64,000 nt of DNA from Escherichia coli (lineage in GTDB: Bacteria; Pseudomonadota; Gammaproteobacteria; Enterobacterales; Enterobacteriaceae). The position numbers and the translations under genes were made by a program. Below the pieces are notes generated by a model. The model saw nothing but the letters and a program-made list of their open reading frames with translations. It ran no database searches and had not been told where the DNA came from. The stretch is taken from assembly GCF_001677475.2 (NCBI RefSeq), contig NZ_CP015229.1; one strand, given 5' to 3'. This document shows positions 11,081-60,691 of this stretch, piece after piece (position 1 is the stretch's first letter; each line of letters starts with the position of its first letter).

Positions 11081-11353
11081 GTGAGTATGCATCAAGTCGT
11101 CAGCTTTTCAGGTGGACGAACATCGGCTTATCTCGTTCATCTGATGGAAGCACAGCGAAAAGCTGGCGCTAGCGTCCATTTCATTTTTATGGATAAGTCT
11201 TACGGCTGGACTGAGTGCGATACCTTCGAAAGGTATTACGATTGGTCGAGAAACAAATGGTGGGCAGTCACTGACGATGGGGAAGAATCAGCATCGAAAC
11301 TAACTCACTGGATGCCACTACCAGAACCGCCACAGGAGTCGAAGAGTGAATAA
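11081..11353 (+). CDS. PAPS-reductase-like PP-loop fragment (90 aa, probably a truncated remnant)
   Basis: VVSFSGGRTSAYLVHL...FIFMD resembles the N-terminal PP-loop of PAPS-reductase-family proteins, but the ORF is far too short for the full domain. Confidence 0.4.
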   Translation: MSMHQVVSFSGGRTSAYLVHLMEAQRKAGASVHFIFMDKSYGWTECDTFERYYDWSRNKWWAVTDDGEESASKLTHWMPLPEPPQESKSE

Positions 11354-11552
11354 AGCAGAGTTATTTCAGAAAATATCGGCTCTCGCGACTGAATGCCACG
11401 CTATAGCATCTGAGCTTGATGTTGGCGATGAACGAACCGAGATGTTCGAAATATACAGTGTGCTGCGCAATCTCTGTCGGCGTGGCTACGCCACTCAAGT
11501 AGGGCGAATGACTAACCCACTACTCTCATCCTGTGATGAGGATGACGAATGA
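11346..11552 (+). CDS. hypothetical protein
   Basis: 68-aa track ORF overlapping neighbours by a few nt. Confidence 0.4.
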   Translation: MNKAELFQKISALATECHAIASELDVGDERTEMFEIYSVLRNLCRRGYATQVGRMTNPLLSSCDEDDE

Positions 11553-12214
11553 TGCATAAATCAGTAGCCGGTGAGTTTCAGAAGGAAGTCGATAATACTA
11601 CCGTTCTATTGGACGATATTTTAAGCATTCTCGCGCTGCTTGAGGCTGGCGATTGGTCAGAACATTGCACTAAAACAGAGCTAGGCGGTCGGCTTGAAAG
11701 AGAGATTACACGGCTTGTTGGTGATGCGCAGGAAGCTACAGTCACTAGTTATGAGTTAATCGCTGAAGCCTGGCGTTTGATGGATGGACAAGATCCTAAA
11801 ACAAGCGATTGGCATAGCAAGGCTTCGAAGTATTTAAATTCCAATAGGGTAGAAAAAGTTGATGATGTGAAACCGAAGCCAGTAGACCACGGTTTCCGCG
11901 ATAACTGCGAATGCTCTAGTTGCCAGACCACGGCCCGTATTTGTTCCGAATTGACAGATAAGTCCAGCCTAATCTACGAAGTTAATGTAGGCGGTAATAC
12001 ATGGGTCGAATGCACAAGAGCTGCATACGTAAGAGCAAAAGACAAGGGTGAATTAACCAGAGTTGTTACCAATCACCCAAATAATGAGCTTAAAGATCAC
12101 CAGATTCGAGAACTGGTGAACGAGTTGAGGGATATTGCGGTTCAGTACCACGGAACGCAGCAATTGCGGGAGAAGATTGCCAGAGCAGTGAACAACTCAG
12201 TCCGTAAAAAATAA
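11549..12214 (+). CDS. hypothetical protein
   Basis: 221-aa track ORF; ATGA overlap with the upstream ORF. Confidence 0.6.
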   Translation: MMHKSVAGEFQKEVDNTTVLLDDILSILALLEAGDWSEHCTKTELGGRLEREITRLVGDAQEATVTSYELIAEAWRLMDGQDPKTSDWHSKASKYLNSNRVEKVDDVKPKPVDHGFRDNCECSSCQTTARICSELTDKSSLIYEVNVGGNTWVECTRAAYVRAKDKGELTRVVTNHPNNELKDHQIRELVNELRDIAVQYHGTQQLREKIARAVNNSVRKK

Positions 12215-12427
12215 GCAATAGTACGATAAAGAGGCCCCATGCTCTTGATGGGGCCTGTAGCAACTAGCGTTATGGACGCTGGTTTACGTACTCAATGATC
12301 GCTTTGATAATCGCGAACATCGGCGGCACGATTTTGAACAGTAAGTTAACCATAACAGGTCTCACTTAGTTTTATCGCGCCTAGCTGCAAATACCTTTGG
12401 GCTTGCCTTTGCAGTTGCAATATCTGT

Positions 12428-12620
12428 AGTCGCCAGATACTTACGGCACGATTTCGAGTTAAGGTAAGGTTTTAGAGTCACCAAAAACCTGGACTTAAAT
12501 CTTCTTTGAGAACAACGATGTTTAGTAAATGGTCATTATTACCTGGTATGACCACTCAACGTTTCTTGATGAATCCAGTACATTCGGTTAATCTTAATTC
12601 AGTCGCCAGATACTTATGGC
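12428..12620 (+). repeat. two 20-bp direct repeats AGTCGCCAGATACTTAYGGC (12428-12447 and 12601-12620) in a structured non-coding region
   Basis: 19/20 identical copies 173 bp apart, with several hairpins between and after them; no ORF with a plausible start in 12215-13015. Confidence 0.6.
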
Positions 12621-12653
12621 TCAGGAACAGAGCCGCAAACTCTGTTTCCTCTT

Positions 12654-12685
12654 AAAAAGCCCAGCCTAGTCAACTGGGCTTTTTA
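12654..12685 (+). terminator. rho-independent terminator
   Basis: AGCCCAG-loop-CTGGGCT stem with A-run before and T-run after. Confidence 0.7.
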
Positions 12686-12980
12686 ATGTCTATTTTTAAC
12701 CCAATGAACCTTCAATACCGCAACATCAGTGTCTTGCGAATTAAGATAGTGTGTATAGGTTATACATGCAAGTGCATAACTCTGTGGATAACTCAGGAAG
12801 GAAAAAGTAGCTTCCGCGCAATTTAGGCCAGACAAGGCTTTCGCAAAAGTCAACGGAGAGAAAAAATTTGTTAAAAATAACGTTTGTTGGAATTGTATAT
12901 ATTTATGCCTTTCAATAGTTAGCATCTTATTAACATCTTTTTTAAGAGATAGAGTTCAAAAATATATAGCTTCAACATAT

Positions 12981-13000
12981 ACCGTATGTATATACAGTAT
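12981..13000 (+). promoter_or_regulatory. LexA (SOS) box-like sequence upstream of humD
   Basis: ACCGTATGTATATACAGTAT: perfect CAG half and alternating TA core, CCG instead of CTG in the other half; 16 nt before the humD ATG. Confidence 0.4.
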
Positions 13001-13015
13001 TAAGAGGCGAGTATT

Positions 13016-13405
13016 ATGGGCTTCCCTTCTCCTGCGGCGGATTATGCTGAGAGCCGTATTTCTCTTGATCAGCAGATAATTAGACATCCTTCAGCGACCT
13101 ACTTCATGAGGGCAGCTGATAGTCATCACCGTGAGGGAATATTGCAGGGTGCTTTGCTGGTGGTTGATTCTTCGCTTACTCCAGTTGATGGTTCGCTGCT
13201 TGTCTGCGCTATGGAGGGTGAATATCGCATAAAGAGATACCGAAAGTATCCGCGTCAGCACCTTGAGGATTTAAGCACCGGGAAGAAAGAGGCGTTACCA
13301 GTAGATGACGATGGTTACACGGGTAGTAATGCTGTTTTTGGTGTGATCACTCATGTCATTAATGATGCCCGAAGTGGGGAATTTGATGATTGTCCGGTGA
13401 TTTAA
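13016..13405 (+). CDS. humD: UmuD-like protein (LexA/S24 peptidase fold)
   Basis: 129 aa; UmuD-like S24 fold with a putative SOS box upstream; sits immediately before phd-doc as in P1. Confidence 0.8.
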   Translation: MGFPSPAADYAESRISLDQQIIRHPSATYFMRAADSHHREGILQGALLVVDSSLTPVDGSLLVCAMEGEYRIKRYRKYPRQHLEDLSTGKKEALPVDDDGYTGSNAVFGVITHVINDARSGEFDDCPVI

Positions 13406-13440
13406 GCTGCAAAGTGCTGGTGCTTTATGCCTGTGAAGTT

Positions 13441-13470
13441 TATAATTGTGTACACATAACGAGTACACGA
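13441..13470 (+). promoter_or_regulatory. phd-doc promoter/operator region
   Basis: TATAAT followed by palindromic GTGTACAC and GAGTACAC elements just upstream of phd. Confidence 0.55.
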
Positions 13471-13477
13471 GGTGTTT

Positions 13478-13699
13478 ATGCAATCCATTAACTTCCGTAC
13501 CGCGCGCGGCAACCTTTCTGAAGTGCTCAACAATGTTGAAGCCGGGGAAGAGGTTGAAATCACTCGCAGAGGCCGTGAGCCAGCAGTAATTGTCAGCAAG
13601 GCTACTTTCGAAGCCTACAAAAAAGCGGCGCTGGATGCCGAATTTGCATCCCTGTTTGACACCCTGGACTCCACCAACAAGGAACTGGTAAACCGATAA
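13478..13699 (+). CDS. phd: Phd antitoxin
   Basis: 73 aa [49 protein letters not shown]... matches P1 Phd as recalled; stop overlaps the doc start. Confidence 0.92.
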
Positions 13700-14079
13700 T
13701 GAGGCATATATCACCGGAAGAACTTATTGCGCTTCATGATGCGAATATAAGCCGCTACGGCGGCCTGCCGGGAATGTCAGATCCGGGTAGGGCAGAGGCC
13801 ATTATCGGGAGAGTTCAGGCCAGAGTTGCCTACGAAGAGATCACCGACCTTTTCGAAGTCTCCGCCACCTACCTGGTGGCTACTGCGAGAGGGCATATAT
13901 TCAATGATGCCAATAAGCGTACCGCGCTAAACAGTGCGCTGCTATTTCTACGCCGTAACGGGGTGCAGGTATTTGATTCACCAGAACTGGCAGACCTTAC
14001 CGTAGGGGCTGCGACCGGAGAGATATCTGTATCTACTGTCGCCGCCACGTTACGTAGATTGTATGGTTCTGCGGAGTAG
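13699..14079 (+). CDS. doc: Doc toxin (Fic-fold kinase)
   Basis: 126 aa [25 protein letters not shown]...; size and sequence as P1 Doc. Confidence 0.92.
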
Positions 14080-21895: not shown

Positions 21896-21929
21896 ATAAC
21901 TTCGTATAGCATACATTATACGAAGTTAT
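21896..21929. other. loxP recombination site
   Basis: exact ATAACTTCGTATA-GCATACAT-TATACGAAGTTAT (13-bp inverted repeats around an 8-bp spacer). Confidence 0.97.
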
Positions 21930-21948: not shown

Positions 21949-22021
21949 GATCAATTTACCTGTAAATCCATACAGTTCAATACCTTATCAGGTCAAATAG
22001 TGATCACTTGATCATTTGATC
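21949..22021. promoter_or_regulatory. GATC (Dam site) cluster between loxP and the cre-proximal genes
   Basis: four GATC within about 70 bp, three of them in TGATCACTTGATCATTTGATCA; P1 cre promoters are known to be Dam-sensitive. Confidence 0.4.
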
Positions 22022-22118: not shown

Positions 22119-22340
22119 ATGGGATATTCAGCTGCTAAAGTGTCCACTCATCTTGAGCTTGAGAAAAACCGTGGTTACTGGCGGGCAAAAGGGTTTGAGC
22201 GTGATAGTTACCAACTGTCATTATCTCGCGGTGAAGAGAAAATAGAACGCACGCGCGGTCGCTGGCGTTTCTATGACGAGAACCATAAACAGGTAAAGGC
22301 AGATCCAATCCTGTACACTCTGCTGAAAACAATAATTTAA
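22119..22340 (+). CDS. small hypothetical protein (73 aa) between loxP and cre
   Basis: GAGGTG ribosome-binding site before the ATG; preceded by a long stem-loop (about 22026-22085). Confidence 0.5.
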   Translation: MGYSAAKVSTHLELEKNRGYWRAKGFERDSYQLSLSRGEEKIERTRGRWRFYDENHKQVKADPILYTLLKTII

Positions 22341-22359
22341 CTTGATCATGAGGTGATGC

Positions 22360-22755
22360 ATGTTTAATAGCCTGACGGATGCCAAGGTAAACGCCTTACT
22401 TAAGGACGCAAAACAAAAAGCTGCTAACCCTGGAACGAGTGAAAATGAACGTGCTATGGCCGTTGCAATTTGGGAGTTAGCAGAAGAAGTAAAGCGAAAC
22501 CGCATGCAGTACACTCGGGTTTACCAGCAATTTGATGGTGCAAGCTGGAAAGATATCGAAGAGGCTGAATATTCAGCATGCAAAGAAGAAAAAAAGACTG
22601 TTCGGATTTTGCATGAAGCAGCAACTCCAATCACTGTAGAAATCCCCGATCACAGATATTTCGAGAACGATGATCTACCTGGGGATGTGATTCGAATTAT
22701 TGATGAGATACTTCATGAACAAGGCTTAACTGTTAAAATTACGCATAATAAATGA
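22360..22755 (+). CDS. hypothetical protein (131 aa), translationally coupled to cre
   Basis: GAGGTG before the ATG; stop overlaps the cre ATG (ATGA). Confidence 0.55.
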   Translation: MFNSLTDAKVNALLKDAKQKAANPGTSENERAMAVAIWELAEEVKRNRMQYTRVYQQFDGASWKDIEEAEYSACKEEKKTVRILHEAATPITVEIPDHRYFENDDLPGDVIRIIDEILHEQGLTVKITHNK

Positions 22756-44953: not shown

Positions 44954-45789
44954 TATTTAGCTCCTTTGCCACACCTAATAACAGTTCCAGCAATCCGTCA
45001 CCATTCATCAGTGATGCGGCAGCGGCCTCTTTGTCATGATACAACTGAAGAGCCATAGAGAATACTTCCGTTGCTGACGTTTTGGAAATAGTCGGTGATT
45101 TCTGCCGAATTTTCCCGGTGTTACTTACTGAGGCTGGCGGGTATACCTTCGCCATATAAATATTACTCAATCGAGATCTGAAGCACCATTCAGGCTTGCC
45201 ACGCCCACCGATATTGACGAAAGATGGCTTATCCCCTTCAACATTGGCCTTCAGGAATGACCGGGCTTTCTCTAACAAACCAGGGTTACTGTACTCAAGA
45301 TGATGACCCAGCTCGTGCCACAGTGCACTTGCATTTTCATCGTTCAAATTGACAGCAACAACACCATTTAGATTTGCATATGCCCTTCCCTGGTGGTGAA
45401 CTACCTTTGATAAGGTCGATATTTTCCCGCCGGTCAGGCGATAAATATCAGCAAGTTCCTTGCGCAGGTCTATCCCACCATTCTGTCCAGCGCGGGCTTC
45501 TTCCACTTCTTCTGTGATAAAAGAGTCGGCCCACTCAAGAGCTTTTTCTTCAGATACGGATGAGTTTGCGATCGCACTGTTCATGGCAGATAACACTTTC
45601 TCGTGGACCGAACCCATACTTCGCTGATTCATTTGCCAGCGTGTCTGCGGGTTATATGAGAATCGCTTAAGTAGTTGGTCAAGCTGCTCAAGTTCTTCTT
45701 CACTGACATACTTTTTAGCCTCACTATTAGACGTCAACTAGTTTTGCCGACTCGCGCCAACTATACTGGCCGCACCCTTCAGGGCGACA

Positions 45790-46545
45790 TCAAGTCGCGC
45801 TTGTTACTGCCTTCGCTGTCTTTTTCCTGTAGCTTTCCCCTTTCAGTTCGAACATATATCCGTGATGGATCAGCCTGTCTGCCGCAGCCACCGCCATAGT
45901 CTCATCCACGAAGATGCTGCCCCACATGCTGAACGGATGGTTACTGGTTATCACCAGGCTCCCACGTTCATAGCGATGCGCTATTAACTCGAACAGCACA
46001 CCCGTTTCGGCACTATCGCGTTTGACATAGCCAAGATCATCCACCACTATCACCCGGTAGCGATCCAGTTTCAGTAGCAGCTCATTCAGTTTCAACTGAG
46101 CTCTGGCTTTACGTAGTTCCTGCAACAGCTCTCCTGCGCTGTAGAACCGGGCCCGGTAGCCCTGACCTACTACGCCATCCACGATCGCTGCCGCCAGATG
46201 GCTTTTCCCCAACCCGCTGGCTCCGAACAGCAGAACGTTTTCTCCTGCATCAACCCAGTCTGTCGTTTCACAGAGTTGCCGGAACTGAGCTCCATTCAGT
46301 TCCGGCACCTGACTGAAGTCGTATTCGCTCAGCGTTTTGGCAACTGGCAACCGGGCCTCCTTTTTATAACGACGCAGTTTTTCACTCTCGCGCCACAGGA
46401 GTTCTTCATTGCATAGCGTCAGAAGATAGCGCGATGGTGTCCAGCCTTCTGCCAGCGCTCGTTTTTCCAGAGCGTGCCATTCAGCTCCAACTCGTGTCAG
46501 GCGTAGTTTACGCAGGCTATGTTCAAGGTGATGGATATTGCTCAC
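45790..46545 (-). CDS. istB: IS21-family IstB helper ATPase
   Basis: 251 aa, one residue different from copy 1 (DRLIHHG vs DRLLHHG). Confidence 0.92.
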   Translation of the reverse strand: MSNIHHLEHSLRKLRLTRVGAEWHALEKRALAEGWTPSRYLLTLCNEELLWRESEKLRRYKKEARLPVAKTLSEYDFSQVPELNGAQFRQLCETTDWVDAGENVLLFGASGLGKSHLAAAIVDGVVGQGYRARFYSAGELLQELRKARAQLKLNELLLKLDRYRVIVVDDLGYVKRDSAETGVLFELIAHRYERGSLVITSNHPFSMWGSIFVDETMAVAAADRLIHHGYMFELKGESYRKKTAKAVTSAT

Positions 46546-48041
46546 TGCGAACCTCCCTTGCCACGCAGTAGTTGCTCATAACTGCTCAGGTTATGCTGTA
46601 TCACATTGACTACCGGCAACGCCTTTTCTTTTATACCCAGGAAGCGCATCAGCCGGTGCAGATCCACGTTTCCCGGGGTATTCAGCATCTGCTCCATACC
46701 TTTTGCCACGACTGAGATATCGTCGTATCCTGCAGCCAGTTTCAGGGCATGTACCATCAGCCTTCCTGCCATATCGGGCTCCAGATGATTACATAAGCGA
46801 CGCCACAGCCTCCGCCATTCATCGTCCGGCAGGATGTCATTTCTCAGCGTTGCATGGCAGAACGCACCGGGCTTTTTTGCCAGACTGTCGATCACATGTC
46901 GGAAGTCGATACGACGGGCCCGCGTCTTCCCTTTTTCTGGTCTGACGCGAGGGCAGCTCATGACCTCGCTGCTGCCAACGTAACAGCTCAGACGATCGTC
47001 CCATAACCTGACCCGTAACAGTTGACCTACAAGCCGGGAAGGTACGCTGTAGACGACGTGCTTCACATTGATGGTACTGCTGCGACTAACCCTCACAGTC
47101 AGCTCATCATAGTCAGCACTGCGACGAAGCGGCAGCGGTTTCAGATGAAGACGTTCTTCCTTGACCAGATCCTGATTGTTACGGTTGTGCCGCATAACCT
47201 GCTGAGTGATGAAGGCCTGATATTCTTCTATGGTGCTGAAGTCGTTACTGCCCCGCAGTATCAGCGCCTGACAGATACGCCTTTTCAGATGTCCGTGGGC
47301 ACTTTCAACCGAGCCATTTTCGTGGCCCCGACCGGCATTATTGTGTACGCCCTGCATTCCGTAGTGCTGACAGAGAGTAGCATAACGCTCAGTCAGCTCG
47401 CGGCGTCCATCTTCGCCCTGTTGTTTCCATGCTGCCCTCAGGCTGTCCGTTTTATGTTCTACCGGCACTCCGCCCAGTTGTCCGAGGGCTTCCTGCAGGC
47501 CTTCAGCCAGAGCAGAGAAGCTCTCACCACCCAGAACAACCCGCATCCAGCTCCAGTGGCTCCATTCCAGACGGAAGTGATACAACTTATGCGCCAACAA
47601 CTTACCGGCGATGGTGACAACTACACCTTTCAGTTCAGTAAAGTCCGACAGGCCTCGCAGGCCGGGCTGATGTTGCTGGCGGAACATGACCTCCTGCTCT
47701 GTACCATACTGTAGTTTCCATTCGCGAACCCGCCGTTGCATTGTTCTTCGAAGGCTGTTGGGGTACTGGCCGGGATATTTATCCTGTAGCATCTCCAGTA
47801 GAGTTGTTGGTGTCAGAGCCGGCCTCTCTTTCAACAGAGGAACAAGCATGCTGTCCCACACAGCTTCCAGAGGATCTTTGCGTGTGCGCCAGTGCCGAAC
47901 ACTGTTTTTTGCCCACTCTCCTTTTTCGATCCGACGACCAGAACGGACTGAGATACCAGCCTTCATGGCCGAGATATGCTGAGTTATACCTTTCTTACGC
48001 TGAGTCATATAGTAACTGACCTGAGAAGTATTGAGCGTCAC
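46542..48041 (-). CDS. istA: IS21-family IstA transposase (intact)
   Basis: 499 aa, GTG start; continuous frame spanning both fragments of copy 1. Confidence 0.92.
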   Translation of the reverse strand: MTLNTSQVSYYMTQRKKGITQHISAMKAGISVRSGRRIEKGEWAKNSVRHWRTRKDPLEAVWDSMLVPLLKERPALTPTTLLEMLQDKYPGQYPNSLRRTMQRRVREWKLQYGTEQEVMFRQQHQPGLRGLSDFTELKGVVVTIAGKLLAHKLYHFRLEWSHWSWMRVVLGGESFSALAEGLQEALGQLGGVPVEHKTDSLRAAWKQQGEDGRRELTERYATLCQHYGMQGVHNNAGRGHENGSVESAHGHLKRRICQALILRGSNDFSTIEEYQAFITQQVMRHNRNNQDLVKEERLHLKPLPLRRSADYDELTVRVSRSSTINVKHVVYSVPSRLVGQLLRVRLWDDRLSCYVGSSEVMSCPRVRPEKGKTRARRIDFRHVIDSLAKKPGAFCHATLRNDILPDDEWRRLWRRLCNHLEPDMAGRLMVHALKLAAGYDDISVVAKGMEQMLNTPGNVDLHRLMRFLGIKEKALPVVNVIQHNLSSYEQLLRGKGGSQ

Positions 48042-50358
48042 GCCATTTCCTGTTGGATCATGTAAATGACACTCAGGTTACAAAACCGGCCAGAATAATC
48101 GGCGCCAGGCGGACTGAGTTATTGTCGTCTCATACCTCACCAATAATGCCAGGGAGAATATTGCCGTTAGGATTAAACGCTCGCGAAAGGAAGAGTTTCA
48201 GCGCCCCCATGCCCTCCGATGCTTCAATATCACCAATAACCCGGTTAACAATGGCCGCACTCTTCGGATTAGCATCCGCCAACGCTCTGGCTACAATTTG
48301 CAGGGACGATACGACCTCACGCTGCATATCCGTCCTGATCTCATCAATAAACTCTGGCGTTATGCCGTGCTCTTTAAGAATATCCCTGCCTTCCGCCGTT
48401 ACCCCATCGATATCACCGACATGTTTATTAACCCGACTTTGCAATGCCTTAAATGCCTTCAGAATTCCACGGGAATCATCCGCTTTACTAACGGCCTTCC
48501 TGAATGCTGGCAAGAAGTCTGAGTTAACCTCATTTTGTTGATCGGCCCACTGAATGGAGGCTTCTTTCATCTCGTCCAGAGTCAGATCACCCAACGCGGT
48601 ATGGTCTGTGAATATGAGCGACAACCTCTGAACCATTTCTGCCAATGGTGATGCCGAATGCGCCGCGCTAAGGAATGCTTTCACCCTGGTTGGGCGAATG
48701 GAAAACCAGTCAATAGCTGGTGGCATATCTCCGTTTTGTATCGCCTGCGCTATCTCATCAAAGCCGTCGCGCCCAAGGGAGGATGCGTGATTTAACAATC
48801 CGCGAAGTAACGAATTGCTGATACCGAATAATCGGCACCATTTATTCACGTCGGCAACAGGCATTCGAACAAAATGCGCAAGCACTTGTACAAGCTGTTC
48901 ATCCTGGGGATCTGTACGGGAAAGCAGCCTGATCAGATGAATAATGTCTTTGATGCCGGATGCCCGATGTAATAGCAAGCTGGTATATGGAGCAACACCG
49001 TTGTAACTACCGCCGGAAACGGACTCGAAAAGACCGCCGGATATCCCTTGCATGCCTTCGTTTTCCAGTTCCTGAGACACCTGGCGAAGGATATCCTGTA
49101 ACGACACATCGCCGCCGCCAAACATATCCCCCAGCGCCTGGCCCTGGTGCTGTAACTCATCATTGATACGTTGAGCCATCAACTTAAAGGCGGTGGCCAT
49201 ACGCTTCGCGCTACGGTTATTCGCGACGATGAACAACGCGAGTGCTTTCACTTCCGGGGCCGTTTCGCTGAACATATCCCCCTGAGCAATAACATCGGTA
49301 ATATGCTGGCCTGACTCCTTCGATTGCCTTACCAGGTCTACCGCATCTTTCAATGCCGCCAGCGCCTTTTTATCGAGGCTATCCGCTGTCTCAATGCCAT
49401 CAACAATAGTTGTCACAGCCTGCTTGTGCGCTTCTCCTGATAAAGCCTGCATCTGGACAAAATCATTGGCTGCCGCATTAAGCGCCGTCAGAACATTACG
49501 CATATCCGGATCAGGTTCTTCTGCAACCATCCTTACCAGGCGCGCATCCTTATATGCCTTGGCAAAGATCGCGTTTTGTATACGGTCAACAAGTTGCCGC
49601 GTTGGTCGCCCATCTTCCGTTACAAGGCCAGCAGCCTGTGTGGCACCAACTTGCGTCATGAATCCGCGAATAAACGCGTCATTACTGCGGCTAAGCAGAT
49701 CTCCGCTTTCTGACGGATTAAACAGCGCCATCATCGCCGGTGTTATGCTGTCGGCATCAACAAAAGCCTTTTCACTGGCTGCCATTTCCTGAAGATCAGA
49801 AATATTTGAGTCCTTGGCAAACTGAACGCGGTCAACCTTAGTTAACCGGCGGCGCACCAATACAGGAGCCGTCATTGATTCAACCTTTTCAGGTCGTATG
49901 CCGAATTCGGTCGCATGTTCAATCAGGTACTCACGATACCGATCCGCATTGCCGTCCTGATAGGCTTTAATGATTCCCATGGTCCGTCCATTACCTGACT
50001 CAACGGCATTGTCCTCACCAATTATCGGCGCGCCATGGCTGGATAAACCGGAATCGGTAAGCTGAGCAGGCCGCAAATCTTTGGATATCTGGTTAACCTG
50101 AAGAAGGCTGGATGCGCGGGTCCGGTCGCGCGGCTGAAGTTCCTGGGGATAGTCAGGATTAATTTTCCCATCCAGAGTATTGGATACCAAAAGAGCTGAG
50201 GCATCGACGATATCAAACGCTGTTTTTACCTCGTCTCCCTTCGCTGTCACCACATACGAAACCCGCCCATAATCGGGCAGGTTCTTAAGCAGCTCGATCA
50301 GCGTTTCTATGCTGGTGGCAATTACCACCTGATCGCTTAAGCTCATCCCTGTTACGCC

Positions 50359-54466: not shown

Positions 54467-55027
54467 ATGCTGATCGGCTATGTACGCGTATCAACAAATG
54501 AACAAAACACTGCTTTGCAACGAAATGCCCTTGAAAGCGCAGGATGTGAGCTAATTTTTGAGGATAAGGCGAGCGGCAAAAAGACTGAACGCCCTGGGCT
54601 AAAAAAGGTTTTGCGTATGCTTTCCAGAGGTGACACCCTGGTCGTATGGAAGTTAGATCGTCTTGGGCGCAGCATGCGTCACTTGGTTGTGCTGGTGGAA
54701 GAGCTGCGTGACAGAGGAATTAATTTCCGGAGTCTCACTGACTCTATCGACACCAGTACACCAATGGGGCGTTTTTTCTTTCACGTAATGGGGGCGCTGG
54801 CTGAAATGGAACGCGAGCTTATCGTTGAACGTACACGCGCTGGACTTGATGCAGCTCGCGCAGAAGGTCGAATAGGAGGCCGTCGGCCTAAATACCAAGA
54901 AGAAACATGGCAGCAAATGCGTCGATTGCTGGAGAATGGCATCCCCCGTAAGCAGGTTGCAATCATCTATGATGTTGCTGTTTCCACGCTTTATAAAAAG
55001 TTTCCTGCGTCATCATTTCAATCCTAA
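54467..55027 (+). CDS. cin: Cin serine invertase
   Basis: 186 aa; MLIGYVRVSTNEQ... catalytic Ser and C-terminal HTH typical of the Gin/Hin/Cin family; stop lies inside cixL. Confidence 0.92.
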   Translation: MLIGYVRVSTNEQNTALQRNALESAGCELIFEDKASGKKTERPGLKKVLRMLSRGDTLVVWKLDRLGRSMRHLVVLVEELRDRGINFRSLTDSIDTSTPMGRFFFHVMGALAEMERELIVERTRAGLDAARAEGRIGGRRPKYQEETWQQMRRLLENGIPRKQVAIIYDVAVSTLYKKFPASSFQS

Positions 55028-55044
55028 ACCTTGGTTTAAGAGAA
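55019..55044. other. cixL crossover site of the invertible C segment
   Basis: CAATCCTAAACC-TT-GGTTTAAGAGAA, a 26-bp site with inverted 12-bp arms and AAACC..GGTTT core. Confidence 0.7.
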
Positions 55045-55074
55045 CTCGGTACCAGCGGTGAAAAGATCCCCCTG

Positions 55075-56676
55075 TTGAGCACGGCTAACACATGGAGTGC
55101 GCGCCAGACTTTCAACGGCGGGATCACCGGAGCGCTGACAGGGAACGCCGATACCGCAACGAAATTGAAAACAGCCAGAAACATTAATGGCGTCAGGTTC
55201 GATGGTTCTGGTGACATTAATATCAATACTATGGTATCGCGTGGTCGCGTAACGGCTCTGGGGGCGAATGCACAGGGGACATCCGGGATTCAGCTGTATG
55301 AGGCATACAACAATGGCTACCCTTCCCCCTATGGCAATGTGCTTCACCTTAAAGGTGCCACCGCTGCTGGCGAAGGTGAGTTATTCATTGGCTGGAGTGG
55401 CACGAGTGGTGACCATGCGCCCGTACATATCCGTTCGCGGCGGGATACTGATTCTGCTAACTGGTCTGAATGGGCGCAGGTCTATACGTCAAAAGATTCC
55501 GTTCCCGGCGTTAATGCCAAAGGGAATCAGGACACCTCTGGTAATGCGGCTACAGCGACTAAATTGCAGACAGCATGTACTATTAACGGTGTCTCGTTTG
55601 ATGGTTCTAAAAACATTGAGTTAACGGCGGAAGATTTAAATCTACAGGAATTCATTAATAAAGCAAATAATGCCGTTCAGCGTTCAGGCGATATCTTGTC
55701 CGGCGGGCTTACTTTTGAAAATGACTCAATCCTTGCCTGGATTCGAAATACTGACTGGGCAAAGATTGGATTTAAAAATGATGCCGACAGCGATACTGAT
55801 TCATACATGTGGTTTGAAACAGGCGACAACGGAAATGAATATTTCAAATGGAGAAGCCGCCAGAGCACCACAACAAAAGACCTGATGAATCTTAAATGGG
55901 ATGCTTTGTCTGTCCTTGTTAAAGCCCTTTTCAGCAGTGAAGTAAAAATATCGACAGTCAATGCACTGAGGATATTTAATTCATCTTTTGGTGCTATTTT
56001 TCGTCGCTCTGAAGAATGCCTGCATATCATCCCTACACGAGAGAATGAGGGAGAAAATGGTGATATAGGGCCACTACGCCCCTTTACGCTTAATCTCAGA
56101 ACTGGTCGGATAAGCATGGGGCATGGTCTGGATGTTACAGGAGATATAACAACTAACGCCTGGGTGTATGCAAACAGGTTTGCTATTAATAGTGGCTCAA
56201 CCTCATGGATTGATATGCGAAACCAGAATGTCATTTTTGGTAGAAACGCAGTATCAACAAGTTCTGCGCAGGCTTTGTTAAGACAAGACCATGCAGAACG
56301 CAAATTTTTTGTCGGTGGACTTGGTAACTACCAGTTTGGTTTTTACATGATTAATAATTCAAGGACAGCCAATGGCACCGATGGTCAGGCGTACATGGAT
56401 AATAACGGAAACTGGCTTTGCGGTGCGCAAGTTATTCCCGGCAACTATGGCAATTTTGATTCCAGATATGTGAAAGATGTTCGACTTGGTTCACAGCAAT
56501 ATTATGGAGTGAACAACTGGCAAACATGGAATTTCCAGTGCCCGTCAGGTCATGTATTGTCTGGTATTAATGTTCAGGATACAGGGTCCAACTCTGCCGA
56601 TAATATAGCTGGCGTTTATTACAGACCCGTTCAAAAGTATATAAATGGCACCTGGTATAATGTAGCGAGCGTTTAA
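55075..56676 (+). CDS. alternative tail-fibre C-terminal segment (Sv'-like), currently not fused to the constant part
   Basis: 533 aa beginning inside the inverted repeat ([33 protein letters not shown]...); the apparent TTG start is an ORF-finder artefact. Confidence 0.7.
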
Positions 56677-57769: not shown

Positions 57770-60691
57770 TTAAATACTCCCCGCGTTATACCACGTTCCA
57801 TTAATGCAATACTGAATTGGCCTTGCCTGAGTTGTATCAATTAATTCATCACGGTTTCCGTTAACTGAACCCGTAACGACATAACCTGACCTGTCAGACC
57901 AGCCGGGACCATTCCATGTCTGAACAGATGACAGACCGCCAAGGCGAATACCTGTAATAAACCTTGAGTTACATTCTGCCTGCGTATATGCACCAACATC
58001 TCCTGCTGATGGCTTGCGTGTTGTGGTGTAAAATTCTGACCAGTCAGCTTCGAATCCGTAACCATCACGCGCTGAACGATAAAAAATACCACCGTTCCTG
58101 TAATTCACGCGGAACTGTACAGCAGGGCAGCTCCCCGTATTCATATTGAAGTGGAGGATTAATGTCGATGCGCCACCAATGATTGCGTTATAGACCCCGC
58201 TATTCCAGTTCCAGCCAACAGCTTTATCATTTCCGACAGTGCTTCCTGTTTGCCCTAAAGCAAATGCAGGTTGCTGATTTTTCGTGTTGTAGTCACGCCG
58301 CCAGCCTGGCGCATAATCTCCACCGTGGTTTATATAAGTAAATTGTGCATTAGTAGTTCCGCCACCGCTGGAAGTGCTTGGTGTTGTTACACGGATGGTC
58401 ATGGCACCTTTATTACCCATAACCTCAATAACGCAACCTGCAAGATGAATAGTTCCACAGCCAGTATCGGTAATAATTTTATTATTGCCGTATGACCATG
58501 AACATTTGCACATCCAGTATGGGTGATTGAATGCCCCTTGAGAATCCAGCCATTCAATCAATTGTGCTGTTGTCCAGTTACCTGCCCCTGTACTAATAGC
58601 ACTGTGAAAAGCGCGACATGCACCAATATTTTTGGTGAAGGTATCTTTTCCTGGAATATCCGCGCCGTTCTGGTTTTTCTGTAATGCTCCTACGGCTAAT
58701 TCTACGGTTTGCTCAAGATTTAAATCTTCCGCCGTTAGCTCAATGTTTTTAGAACCATCAAACGAGACACCGTTAATAGTACGTGCTGTCTGCAATTTGG
58801 TCGCTGTAGCCGCATTACCAGAGGTGTCCTGATTCCCTTTGGCATTAACGCCGGGAACGGAGTCTTTTGACGTATAGATCTGTGCCCATTCGGACCATGC
58901 CGCAGCAGTGCTATCTCTTTTGGATCGAATGAAAGCAGGTGCATGAGCGCCATTTGTGCCACTCCAGCCAATGAGCAACTCGCCTTCACCAGTTGATGCA
59001 GCTCCCTTCAGGTGAAGTACATTCCCGTAAGTCGTCGGATAACCATTGTTGTATGCCTCATACATCTGCAATCCAGTAGCAGCACCTTGCGTTGTACCGG
59101 TAAGCGCAGTAACGCGTCCTCTAGACGTAATTGTTGGTATCGAAATGTTCGTAGAACCATCGAACCTGACGCCATTAATATTTATGGCTGTTTTTAATTT
59201 CGTCGCGGTGTCGGCGTTCCCTGTCAGCGCCCCGGTGATCCCGCCGTTGAAAGTCTGGCGCGCACTCCATGTGTTAGCCGTACTCAACAGGGGGATCTTT
59301 TCACCGCTGGTACCGAGTTCTCTTAAACCAAGGTATTGGATAACGGCCAGTGTGCTTGTTTTAGCCAGAATATCGCGACCGACTGACGTTAAATCAGTCT
59401 GAGCTACCGTATCCTTACCAGTAAAATAAGGCAGTTTGTTTGCACCAGTCGCAAGGGCCGCGAGAGCGGTTAAAGTTGCATCCAGAGGCTGTTTGCCTGC
59501 CAGCGCATTTGTCATTGTTGTCGCAAAGTTCGGGTCATTGCCAAGTGCTGCGGCAAGCTCATTCAGGGTATCAAGAGCTTCTGGTGATGAACCAACCAGT
59601 GCGGATATGGCAGCTCTTACATAAGCGGTCGTAGCAATCTGCGTATTATTTGTGCCCTGTGCGGCGGTCGGCGCAGTAGGGACACCCGTTAATGCAGGGC
59701 TTGCCAAAGGCGCTTTGAGAGCCAGGGCATTGTTGATAGTTGTGCTGAAATTCGGGTCGTTATTGATCGCAGCCGCTATTTCTTTCAGCGTATCCAGTGT
59801 GCCAGGCGCACCGTTGATAAGTGCAGTTATAGCTGCCTTAACAAAGGCTGTATTTGCGATCTGCGTGCTGTTTGTACCTTGCGCTGCCGTCGGCGCGGTT
59901 GGCGTTCCTGTCAGACTCGGGCTTTCTATTGGCGCTTTGGTATCAGCCAGATCCTTTACAGACTTAACGGCTTTAGGGGTCGCCGCCATTGTTTCGCTGT
60001 CGCTGTTAGTTTCGCTACTGAGCTGAACTAATCCCTTTTGCGTTGTGCTTGCATCCTGCGCCGTATACTTGCTTTTTGCCAGATCGTAGGCTTTTTTAAC
60101 TGCCAGCGAACTTGCAGCAACATCACTTCTACTACTGGTTACAGAGTCTGAAATATCAATGCCGATCGTGCGGTTAATACGCTCGGATGTATCAATCATC
60201 TCCTGGGTAATGGCTGATACGCCAGCAGGGATATTCACCGTACAAACAAGCAGCTCCCCATCTCCTAACTGATATGAATCGGTATAGGTTCTGGCAACAA
60301 ATTCAGCCGCATGAATATGTGACGCGGTATTAACCTGATAGGTATCCTCTCCAAGGAGGTATCTTCCCTTCAGCACAATTGCATATTTCTTGCCTGCACT
60401 AAGTGCAAGAGAAATATCCTTACGGTGCTGAATAGTTACCTGGTAGAATTCACCAATATCCACCGACGCCGCGCCTGCGGTTTTATCACCATCCACTGAG
60501 GTGATTAACAGGTTCATCCCACCGCCAGGCTTAGGTAAGAAACCGGCATAAAATCCCGGGTCAACAATCCCCCTGAATTTTCGGTTTAGCGCGGCTGACA
60601 GATATGGTTCGTGGTATTGCACATCAGCCACCAGAGCCAACGACTCGGGTGATGGGGAAGTAACCGATGTGACAACTGTAACGTCATTCAT
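57770..60691 (-). CDS. tail fibre protein S (constant part fused to the Sv variable part)
   Basis: 973 aa from ATG 60691 (AAGGA upstream); track ORF extends to 60778 through an in-frame upstream start overlapping R; crosses cixR. Confidence 0.85.
59318..59343. other. cixR crossover site
   Basis: TTCTCTTAAACC-AA-GGTATTGGATAA, inverted relative to cixL. Confidence 0.7.
59480..59930 (-). repeat. internal tandem duplication (about 2 x 216 bp) within the S gene
   Basis: two consecutive ~72-aa blocks ([59 protein letters not shown]... and [59 protein letters not shown]...); coordinates approximate. Confidence 0.5.

Follow-up and report, generated by a model that had tools for sequence, protein, structure and literature searches.

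In E. coli, umuDC is controlled by a strong LexA box that lies just upstream of the coding region. The humD gene is likewise a UmuD-type gene placed behind a LexA box, but it has no umuC partner gene and encodes the already-processed UmuD′ form, which needs no RecA-mediated activation, so that the only evident brake on HumD is transcriptional. In the P1 record (NC_005856, 87545–87564), the 20-mer TACTGTATAAATGAACAGTA is annotated as "LexA binding site in the regulatory region of lxr and humD". In the P1 Ref paper, qPCR primers for humD, hot and phd were used for lytic induction and not for SOS, and the paper contains no LexA data on humD. A LexA operator with a single altered half-site is known from the two-hybrid strain E. 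coli SU202, in whose hybrid operator op408/op+ CTGT(N)8ACAG was mutated to CCGT(N)8ACAG (PMC12430536, Fig. 1 legend). This operator is repressed only by the heterodimer of wild-type and altered-specificity (408) LexA DNA-binding domains (PMC12430536, PMC3575510). At other promoters, the change of one triplet (CAG to ACT) abolished the LexA gel shift and caused 10- to 48-fold derepression (bioRxiv 10.1101/2025.11.21.689736).

The phd-doc addiction operon provides the second point of comparison. Phd dimers bind two adjacent palindromic operators cooperatively, and Doc acts as corepressor, with conditional cooperativity (PMC13034048, PMC3920265, PMC4803016). Here we compare these systems with a locus in a 64,000-nucleotide stretch of E. 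coli DNA (hereafter the window), for which an earlier note had proposed SOS control of humD and autoregulation of phd-doc.

Mosaic structure of the humD region

The window is a P1-like plasmid prophage in which humD, phd, doc, pdcA and pdcB follow in this order (Table 1), and megablast against phage records aligned P1, P7, SJ46, RCS47 and D6 across humD to pdcB at 94–97% identity. HumD is identical to P1 HumD at 126 of 129 positions (three substitutions) and matches Pfam Peptidase_S24 (E 7e-9; 35.8 bits against a cut-off of 23.3), which identifies it as a ~129-aa S24-domain protein and a close relative of its P1 counterpart. Homology to P1 sets in at position 13015, one base before the humD ATG, and homology to RCS47 and D6 reaches upstream only to 12971. 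The sequence from 11303 to the end of humD is matched by phage Cyrano and by many ~110-kb plasmids of the pLF82/pRM9975-1 type. Relative to pRM9975-1, the window shows 9 differences in 1235 bp (11879–13113; 99.3% identical) followed by 53 in the next 288 bp, whereas its differences from P1 and RCS47 follow the opposite pattern across the same junction. The humD gene is chimeric, being of the Cyrano/pRM9975-1 type up to ~13113 and of the P1/RCS47 type from 13114. These opposite patterns indicate that a ~1.8-kb patch (11303–13113) from a Cyrano/pLF82-type phage-plasmid has replaced the upfM-hot-lxr region of P1. The right-hand junction of the patch lies inside humD, at ~13110, and was absent from all PLSDB plasmids. 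Only a 125-bp DnaA-box segment of the replaced P1 region is still recognizable. A minus-strand 80-aa ORF (12683–12925), considered as an lxr analogue, had no family match and an implausible composition and was discarded as spurious.

The ~800-bp "empty" stretch before humD contains a conserved unannotated cassette (12270–12690) that is a candidate type I toxin-antitoxin system. Its layout is like that of dinQ-agrB, with a small hydrophobic peptide gene and a divergent sRNA whose 5′ region matches the toxin mRNA (predicted pairing). The sRNA matched the Rfam family AgrB over its full length but below threshold (26.4 bits; gathering score 40; E 0.04–0.07), and the cassette showed no DNA homology to E. 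coli dinQ-agrAB. The 5′ tail of the sRNA is repeated at 12428–12443 and would therefore pair with the minus-strand transcript. Relatives of the cassette were found at 70–76% identity on unrelated Kosakonia, Klebsiella and Citrobacter plasmids; the tail/target identity of 15–16 nt is kept within every copy and differs between lineages, that is, it co-varies, and 5 of the 27 base pairs of the sRNA show compensatory changes. The hydrophobic peptide of 27–28 aa (e.g. MQMLLLFLKLAHPVTVIIMTLLGFWKNR) is conserved in five copies and had no Pfam or NCBIfam family match. A link between the cassette and the LexA box described below was rejected: in unrelated plasmids without humD the cassette is ended by its own terminator, with no LexA-like site near. 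The cassette thus appears to be self-contained and unrelated to the LexA box.

Table 1. Features of the humD and phd-doc region, in window coordinates
Feature	Position	Strand	Remarks
Hydrophobic 27-aa ORF	12353→12270 (from ATG)	-	31 aa from GTG at 12365
Candidate sRNA, ~85 nt	~12600–12687	+	ends in terminator; fold z = -5.25
Inferred -35 of humD, TTCAAA	12955–12960	+	consensus match in relative
Inferred -10 of humD, TATACC	12978–12983	+	TATACT in relatives; last base is the mutated one
LexA (SOS) box, 20-mer TACCGTATGTATATACAGTA	12980–12999		left half CCGT, not CTGT
ACCGTATGTATATACAGTAT	12981–13000		sequence quoted in the earlier note
Derived T→C	12983		common to LexA-box CTG (middle base) and -10 hexamer (last base)
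Shine-Dalgarno-like AAGAGG of humD	13001–13006	+	read from sequence; 9 nt before ATG
humD	13016–13405	+	129 aa, UmuD′-like, intact ORF
Pphd -35, TGGTGC	13418–13423	+	mapped from P1 annotation (P1 L001 2904–2909)
Pphd -10, TATAAT	13441–13446	+	same as annotated -10 of P1
Phd operator site 1, TGTGTACACA	13447–13456		perfect 10-bp palindrome; identical in P1 and RCS47
8-mer GTGTACAC	13448–13455		quoted in the earlier note
Phd operator site 2, CGAGTACACG	13460–13469		imperfect palindrome, 8/10; identical in P1
8-mer GAGTACAC	13461–13468		quoted in the earlier note
phd	13478–13699	+	antitoxin gene, 73 aa
doc	13699–14079	+	toxin gene, 126 aa

The phd-doc promoter and operator

From the -35 hexamer to the phd start codon, the window is identical to Pphd and the Phd/Doc operator of P1, whose record labels the equivalent hexamers "sigma 70 promoter Pphd", and no difference of regulatory relevance was detected in the window. 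When 13395–13490 was aligned with P1, RCS47 and D6, identity to P1 was 95 of 96 overall and 50 of 50 from TATAAT on; the sole difference falls within the end of humD, 13400–13490 is identical, and the interval from the humD stop codon to phd is 100% identical. Phage D6 is identical at 23 of 46 positions upstream of the -10 and at 48 of 50 from TATAAT on, a step that can be read as a conservation footprint covering exactly the promoter-operator. The centers of the two Phd sites are 13 bp apart, and the sites are followed by GAGG and then by the phd ATG. With one mismatch allowed, the two 8-mers occurred in the window at chance level (15 matches against 16.8 expected); for the pair GTACAC-N7-GTACAC there were two matches where 0.06 were expected, and for the complete 32-mer (TATAAT to GAGG) there was one, with 0.00 expected. 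The operator 60-mer was found in 1,123 PLSDB plasmid records, 864 of which fell in the band of at least 99%.

Phd is identical to P1 Phd (73/73) and aligns over its full length with P1 Phd chains of solved structure (3hry and others; E 1.6e-42), while Doc is identical at 124 of 126 positions (S113T, D116A); Pfam assigned the two proteins to PhdYeFM_antitox and Fic/DOC, respectively. The locus therefore combines the attributes of a P1-type operator, namely paired sites right after the -10, identity with P1, and intact cognate Phd and Doc. Repression by Phd, enhanced by Doc, has been established for the identical P1 sequence (PMC4803016, PMC13034048, PMC3920265). When the literature was searched for GTGTACAC in combination with Phd, the only hits were unrelated primers. 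By analogy with P1, each operator site would hold one Phd dimer, Doc would bridge the dimers as corepressor, and binding of Phd/Doc right after TATAAT would make the addiction operon autoregulated. The phd-doc promoter-operator can thus be read as intact, P1-like and an instance of already known biology. The proposal of an autoregulatory Phd-Doc operator was borne out by these comparisons. TATAAT and the two sites behind it are likewise present, but GAGTACAC, which had been described as a palindrome, is self-complementary at only 6 of 8 positions.

The YefM-YoeB operator of E. coli is similar in that its antitoxin belongs to the same family (Pfam PhdYeFM_antitox) and in that two neighboring palindromes overlap or abut the -10; its core TGTACA is present in site 1 of the window, and site 2 has AGTACA. 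It differs in its flanking bases and in its toxin, which is YoeB, a RelE-type RNase, and not Doc, a Fic-family kinase. The published center spacing of YefM-YoeB, 12 bp (PMC4803016, PMC3920265), is similar to that found here.

The LexA box and putative promoter upstream of humD

The LexA consensus 20-mer, with up to three mismatches allowed, had a single match in the 64 kb of the window (two mismatches, against 0.00 matches expected), and this match ends 16 nt before the humD ATG. The loose core CTGT-N8-ACAG with one mismatch gave 33 matches in the window against 20.7 expected, which is not significant alone. We scored LexA sites by the heterology index (HI). Table S1 of PMC12527982 lists 368 scored sites, and regression on 140 of them reproduced the published matrix exactly (rms 2e-5), as did an earlier fit on 190 sites. 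The matrix is palindromic and built on 38 half-sites, and the HI binding threshold is ~13. Among the 356 window sites with one CTG/CAG triplet mismatch, the humD box had a residual HI of 0.54, the next best being 11.1.

The box aligns with the annotated LexA site of P1, so that its position is conserved, and a box occupies the corresponding place in flanks of three unrelated types, those of P1/pEC18-3, RCS47/D6 and Cyrano/pRM9975-1. The site before humD is thus a genuine LexA-type site and not a chance match. It shares with the P1 lxr/humD site the downstream gene, the kind of 20-mer and an equivalent position, although the P1 site ends 19 nt before the ATG, its flanking DNA is unrelated, the window has neither the divergent lxr nor hot, and the spacers differ. 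The pRM9975-1-type box TACTGTATGTATATACAGTA, which is the closest type to that of the window and represents the ancestral state, has an HI of 0.54, compared with 2.82 for Cyrano, 2.90 for RCS47/D6 and 4.52 for P1; among the tabulated reference sites, the best from E. coli K-12 has 2.35, umuDC 2.77 and recA 4.31. The window box, by contrast, has CCGT for CTGT. Since CTG and CAG are invariant among the 368 sites listed, the penalty for C in CTG is not derivable from the HI table: the window box scores 0.54 over 14 scorable positions, and a formula ceiling of ln(38.5/0.5) = 4.34 brings it to about 4.9, a value that probably understates the cost because the pseudocount caps the penalty at invariant positions.

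The two triplets are strictly conserved elsewhere. The 80 closest humD loci (IMG/VR) comprise 23 distinct upstream sequences and 11 box variants, which vary only at positions 2, 7–13 and 20; CTG and CAG are intact in 80/80, and all 88 other humD copies inspected (12 box variants) keep both triplets. The core of the window box is CCGT-N8-ACAG instead of CTGT-N8-ACAG. The T→C change at 12983 responsible for this turns CTGT into CCGT and TATACT into TATACC; over 221 bp (99.5% identical) the window does not otherwise differ from pRM9975-1. Records with this upstream type, ~65 from plasmids and ~100 from E. coli genomes, were retrieved with a 60-bp query centered on the box; the top matches all reached 59/60, and none was exact. 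An exact 38-mer with C was absent from the GTDB representative genomes and IMG/VR, and exact matches to the C allele were missing from PLSDB, 5,426 E. coli genomes, the GTDB representatives, IMG/VR and the JGI metagenomes. The T allele was found 8 times in the collections searched. A C-or-T pattern search yielded six further copies (IMG/VR and metagenomes), all six of which carry T, indicating that the C at 12983 is derived and, so far, unique among the copies searched. The presence of one imperfect half in a LexA-box-like sequence before humD, as the earlier note had it, is confirmed, but this half is more than a degenerate match: it carries a derived change in the essential CTG, absent from 88/88 other copies.

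The same base belongs to a putative promoter. In the window, the consensus scan found no sigma70-like promoter between 12400 and 14400, whereas at the homologous place it found TTCAAA-17-TATACT in pRM9975-1 (9/12) and TTCACA-18-TATACT in RCS47 (10/12). The box overlaps TATACT, the only promoter-like -10 of the relatives, in a promoter assigned by consensus matching. On a rough PWM, the frequencies of which are our own approximations, the ancestral T allele scored 10.9 bits, ~4 bits above any rival in the 316 bp upstream, and the C allele ~4.3 bits. The humD gene of the window cannot be called promoterless, because candidates of 6–7 bits remain, including TTCAAC-16-TACAGT, which uses the intact right half of the box, and because the proven Pphd scores only 7.0 bits on the same scale. 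The P1 late promoter LPhot was rejected as a conserved driver of humD, its -22 element matching at 6/9 and its -10 (AATTGT) being poor. In Cyrano, pLF82 and pRM9975-1, the humD module has the same box, -35, -10 and Shine-Dalgarno sequence bar one base, the canonical T that gives TATACT and CTGT; there, humD is followed by unrelated genes (MinD/ApbC-like, metG) and not by phd-doc.

The other annotated LexA site of P1, which overlaps promoter P2coi next to lox, is identical in the window at 21958–21977 (ACCTGTAAATCCATACAGTT, HI 8.12); no other CTG-N10-CAG site in the window falls below the threshold of ~13. This identity suggests that the other SOS link of the element is intact.

Regulation of humD in this element

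We consider it fairly probable that the region consists of two classical repressor-operator units, of which the phd-doc unit is intact while the humD unit has a LexA box damaged over its promoter. In the relatives, the box TACTGTAT-N4-ATACAGTA would cover the -10 TATACT and the likely transcription start, and LexA bound there would block RNA polymerase until SOS induction. This control unit came not from P1 but with the Cyrano/pLF82-type patch of ~1.8 kb that replaced hot and lxr by recombining inside humD. In the window, the single T→C would reduce both LexA binding and promoter strength. Hence humD is most likely expressed weakly and with poor SOS inducibility, and it is probably not normally SOS-regulated in this element; where the promoter lies, and how far and in which direction expression is changed, we infer from sequence comparison. 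The proposed SOS control of humD thus agrees with a box equivalent to that of P1 and an intact HumD, but it is at odds with the broken CTG and with regulatory DNA that is not that of P1. Similarly, the comparison with the P1 promoters, which had been suggested as a check, showed an identical phd region and an equivalent humD LexA site, but humD flanks unrelated to those of P1, and the view of two intact, regulated modules can be kept for phd-doc but finds no support in humD, with its lesion in the box and the putative -10.

It is possible, though we think it the less likely course, that the humD box is still a working LexA operator, CCGT being bound well enough for humD to stay SOS-regulated. 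Residual LexA binding to the C allele is plausible, since the formula maximum of ~4.9 is within the range of proven operators, near recA and far below the threshold; HI outside the triplets is 0.54, the spacer and the right half-site are intact, and a LexA dimer may be held by one perfect half and a near-consensus spacer. Some natural boxes of E. coli, that of dinG among them, function in spite of one non-canonical triplet. However, what recommended the CCGT/ACAG operator for the two-hybrid system is that it escapes repression by wild-type LexA DNA-binding domains on their own, and op408/op+ has a core identical to that of the window (CCGT-N8-ACAG), with one mutant and one wild-type half-site. 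The likeness has limits: op408/op+ is engineered and was assayed with LexA DNA-binding-domain fusions, not native LexA, and the remaining box positions of the window are closer to consensus. We take the context of op408/op+ to be the sulA operator, than which the rest of the window box is ~4 HI units better. Also speaking against a working operator, a triplet change is tolerated in 0/88 other copies with 12 box variants, the pseudocount cap makes HI understate the penalty at invariant positions, and, even with LexA bound, the controlled promoter has lost the conserved last T of its -10.

A damaged humD unit could also be an adaptation: it is conceivable, though in our view rather unlikely, that selection favored a true T→C mutation at 12983 by which humD is released from SOS control. 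That one of the nine SNPs of the block should fall on one of the six critical bases of the box has a prior of ~4%, which is only mildly improbable; the change may be neutral drift and is no proof of selection. In one version of the selected change, humD would be silenced. In the other, a residual promoter such as TTCAAC-16-TACAGT would escape LexA and make the UmuD′-like subunit constitutive, in which case the host could become a mild constitutive mutator once UmuC is available. If selected, the change would be a natural counterpart to the engineered op408 half-site.

We hold it improbable that the C is a sequencing or assembly error, the true base being T and both promoter and operator intact. 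None of the collections searched contains a second copy of the variant, and nothing else differs from the nearest relative in 221 bp; however, the block has 8 other single-base differences from pRM9975-1, so that a divergence of ~0.7% is real, and 12983 lies outside any homopolymer or other error-prone context. It is also improbable that the LexA box is largely irrelevant and humD is transcribed by read-through from upstream or from a P1 late-promoter remnant ~125 bp upstream. The segment 12767–12890 is indeed 76% similar to a P1 segment that ends in the annotated LPhot, the predicted PhumD of P1 itself lies ~480 bp upstream of the box, and other promoter candidates of 6–7 bits exist upstream, but the LPhot elements match as poorly as described above, a terminator-like hairpin (12663–12680) stands between the upstream genes and humD, and the importance of the box to humD is supported by triplets strictly kept in all other copies. 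Finally, the idea that the resemblances are chance matches in AT-rich intergenic DNA, as the chance frequency of the loose patterns (CTGT-N8-ACAG and GTGTACAC, each with one mismatch) might suggest, is effectively refuted by the conservation data, given full-length patterns that are unique against shuffles, a box kept in three unrelated flank contexts, and an operator identical to the experimentally characterized P1 operator region.

A damaged humD unit beside an intact phd-doc unit has consequences for annotation. A fully P1-like, functional addiction module may be annotated at phd-doc, but SOS regulation of humD is not a safe assumption in this element. The humD site would escape any pipeline in which CTG-N10-CAG is obligatory, and looser matching would wrongly call a normal SOS box. 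Both sites are of known kinds, the humD copy being the damaged member, in a promoter module that is not that of P1. Relatives of the element guard humD with a LexA box that ranks among the known boxes closest to consensus (HI 0.54). The lesion is one SNP in one element, read from the sequence, and, lying at the single base common to operator and promoter, it offers a test case for the mutual constraint of overlapping sites. The junction within humD shows, moreover, that P1-like and pLF82/SSU5-like phage-plasmids swap DNA via humD, a gene common to both.

Mosaic origin of the DNA upstream of humD

A patch of about 1.8 kb (11303-13113), occupying the place of the upfM-hot-lxr region of P1, consists of phage-plasmid DNA of the Cyrano/pLF82/pRM9975-1 type. 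The patch recombines within humD, the gene for a UmuD'-like protein, with a junction near 13110-13114, so that humD is chimeric; a search of the PLSDB plasmids for this junction found it in none. The block at window positions 12765-12860 shares about 85% similarity with the P1 sequence that precedes hot; the P1 annotation likens this sequence to a region of E. coli carrying two DnaA boxes. At 12782-12790 the block has a perfect complement of the DnaA box, TGTGGATAA.

A candidate type I toxin-antitoxin cassette

Positions 12270-12690, which carry no annotation, hold a candidate type I toxin-antitoxin cassette composed of a candidate sRNA and a small hydrophobic ORF. The sRNA has a fold z of −5.25 and matches AgrB, the Rfam model of the dinQ-agrB sRNA antitoxin, below threshold, and its 5′ tail is predicted to pair with a minus-strand transcript at 12427-12447. 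The cassette is conserved and also carried by unrelated plasmids of Kosakonia, Klebsiella and Citrobacter; among its copies the sRNA tail and the target co-vary, and the sRNA hairpins contain compensatory changes. The 27-aa peptide matched no family in Pfam or NCBIfam.

Coordinates of the LexA box, candidate sRNA and ORFs in the window
Feature	Position	Strand	Details
LexA box ACCTGTAAATCCATACAGTT	21958-21977		HI 8.12
Candidate sRNA, ~85 nt	≈12600-12687	+	terminator 12663-12680
Hydrophobic ORF, 27 aa from ATG	12353→12270	minus	31 aa if GTG at 12365 is the start
131-aa ORF	22360-22755		carried by the cra-cre insertion

Regulatory sites near loxP and in the Phd operator

Besides the site before humD, the window has a second LexA box, the only canonical one in it with a low heterology index (HI; binding threshold about 13), with loxP (21896-21929) 29 bp to its left. 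P1 has an identical site, which its annotation assigns to LexA binding and places over promoter P2coi. In phage D6, the Phd operator (L004 3566-3592) differs from that of P1 in that each of its two sites carries one T→C change (GCGTACAC and GAGCACAC), and everything else from the −10 box up to phd is conserved between the two phages. These substitutions may represent a matched change across both half-operators.

Insertion and repeats in the window

Compared with P1, there is an insertion of about 410 bp at 22337-22748, between cra (22119-22340) and cre (from ~22752). An element of about 2.46 kb occurs in two direct copies (2266-4728 and 45725-48134) that are at least 99.9% identical and lie about 43.4 kb apart, one of them containing a 56-bp internal tandem duplication (3896-4004); the repeated element is probably an insertion sequence, or else the two copies form the arms of a composite transposon. 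Positions 55021-55643 and 58716-59341 make up an inverted repeat, about 630 bp long with 83% identity. The invertible tail-fibre C segment of P1 is flanked by inverted repeats, and this pair may mark the bounds of a C segment of the P1 type.
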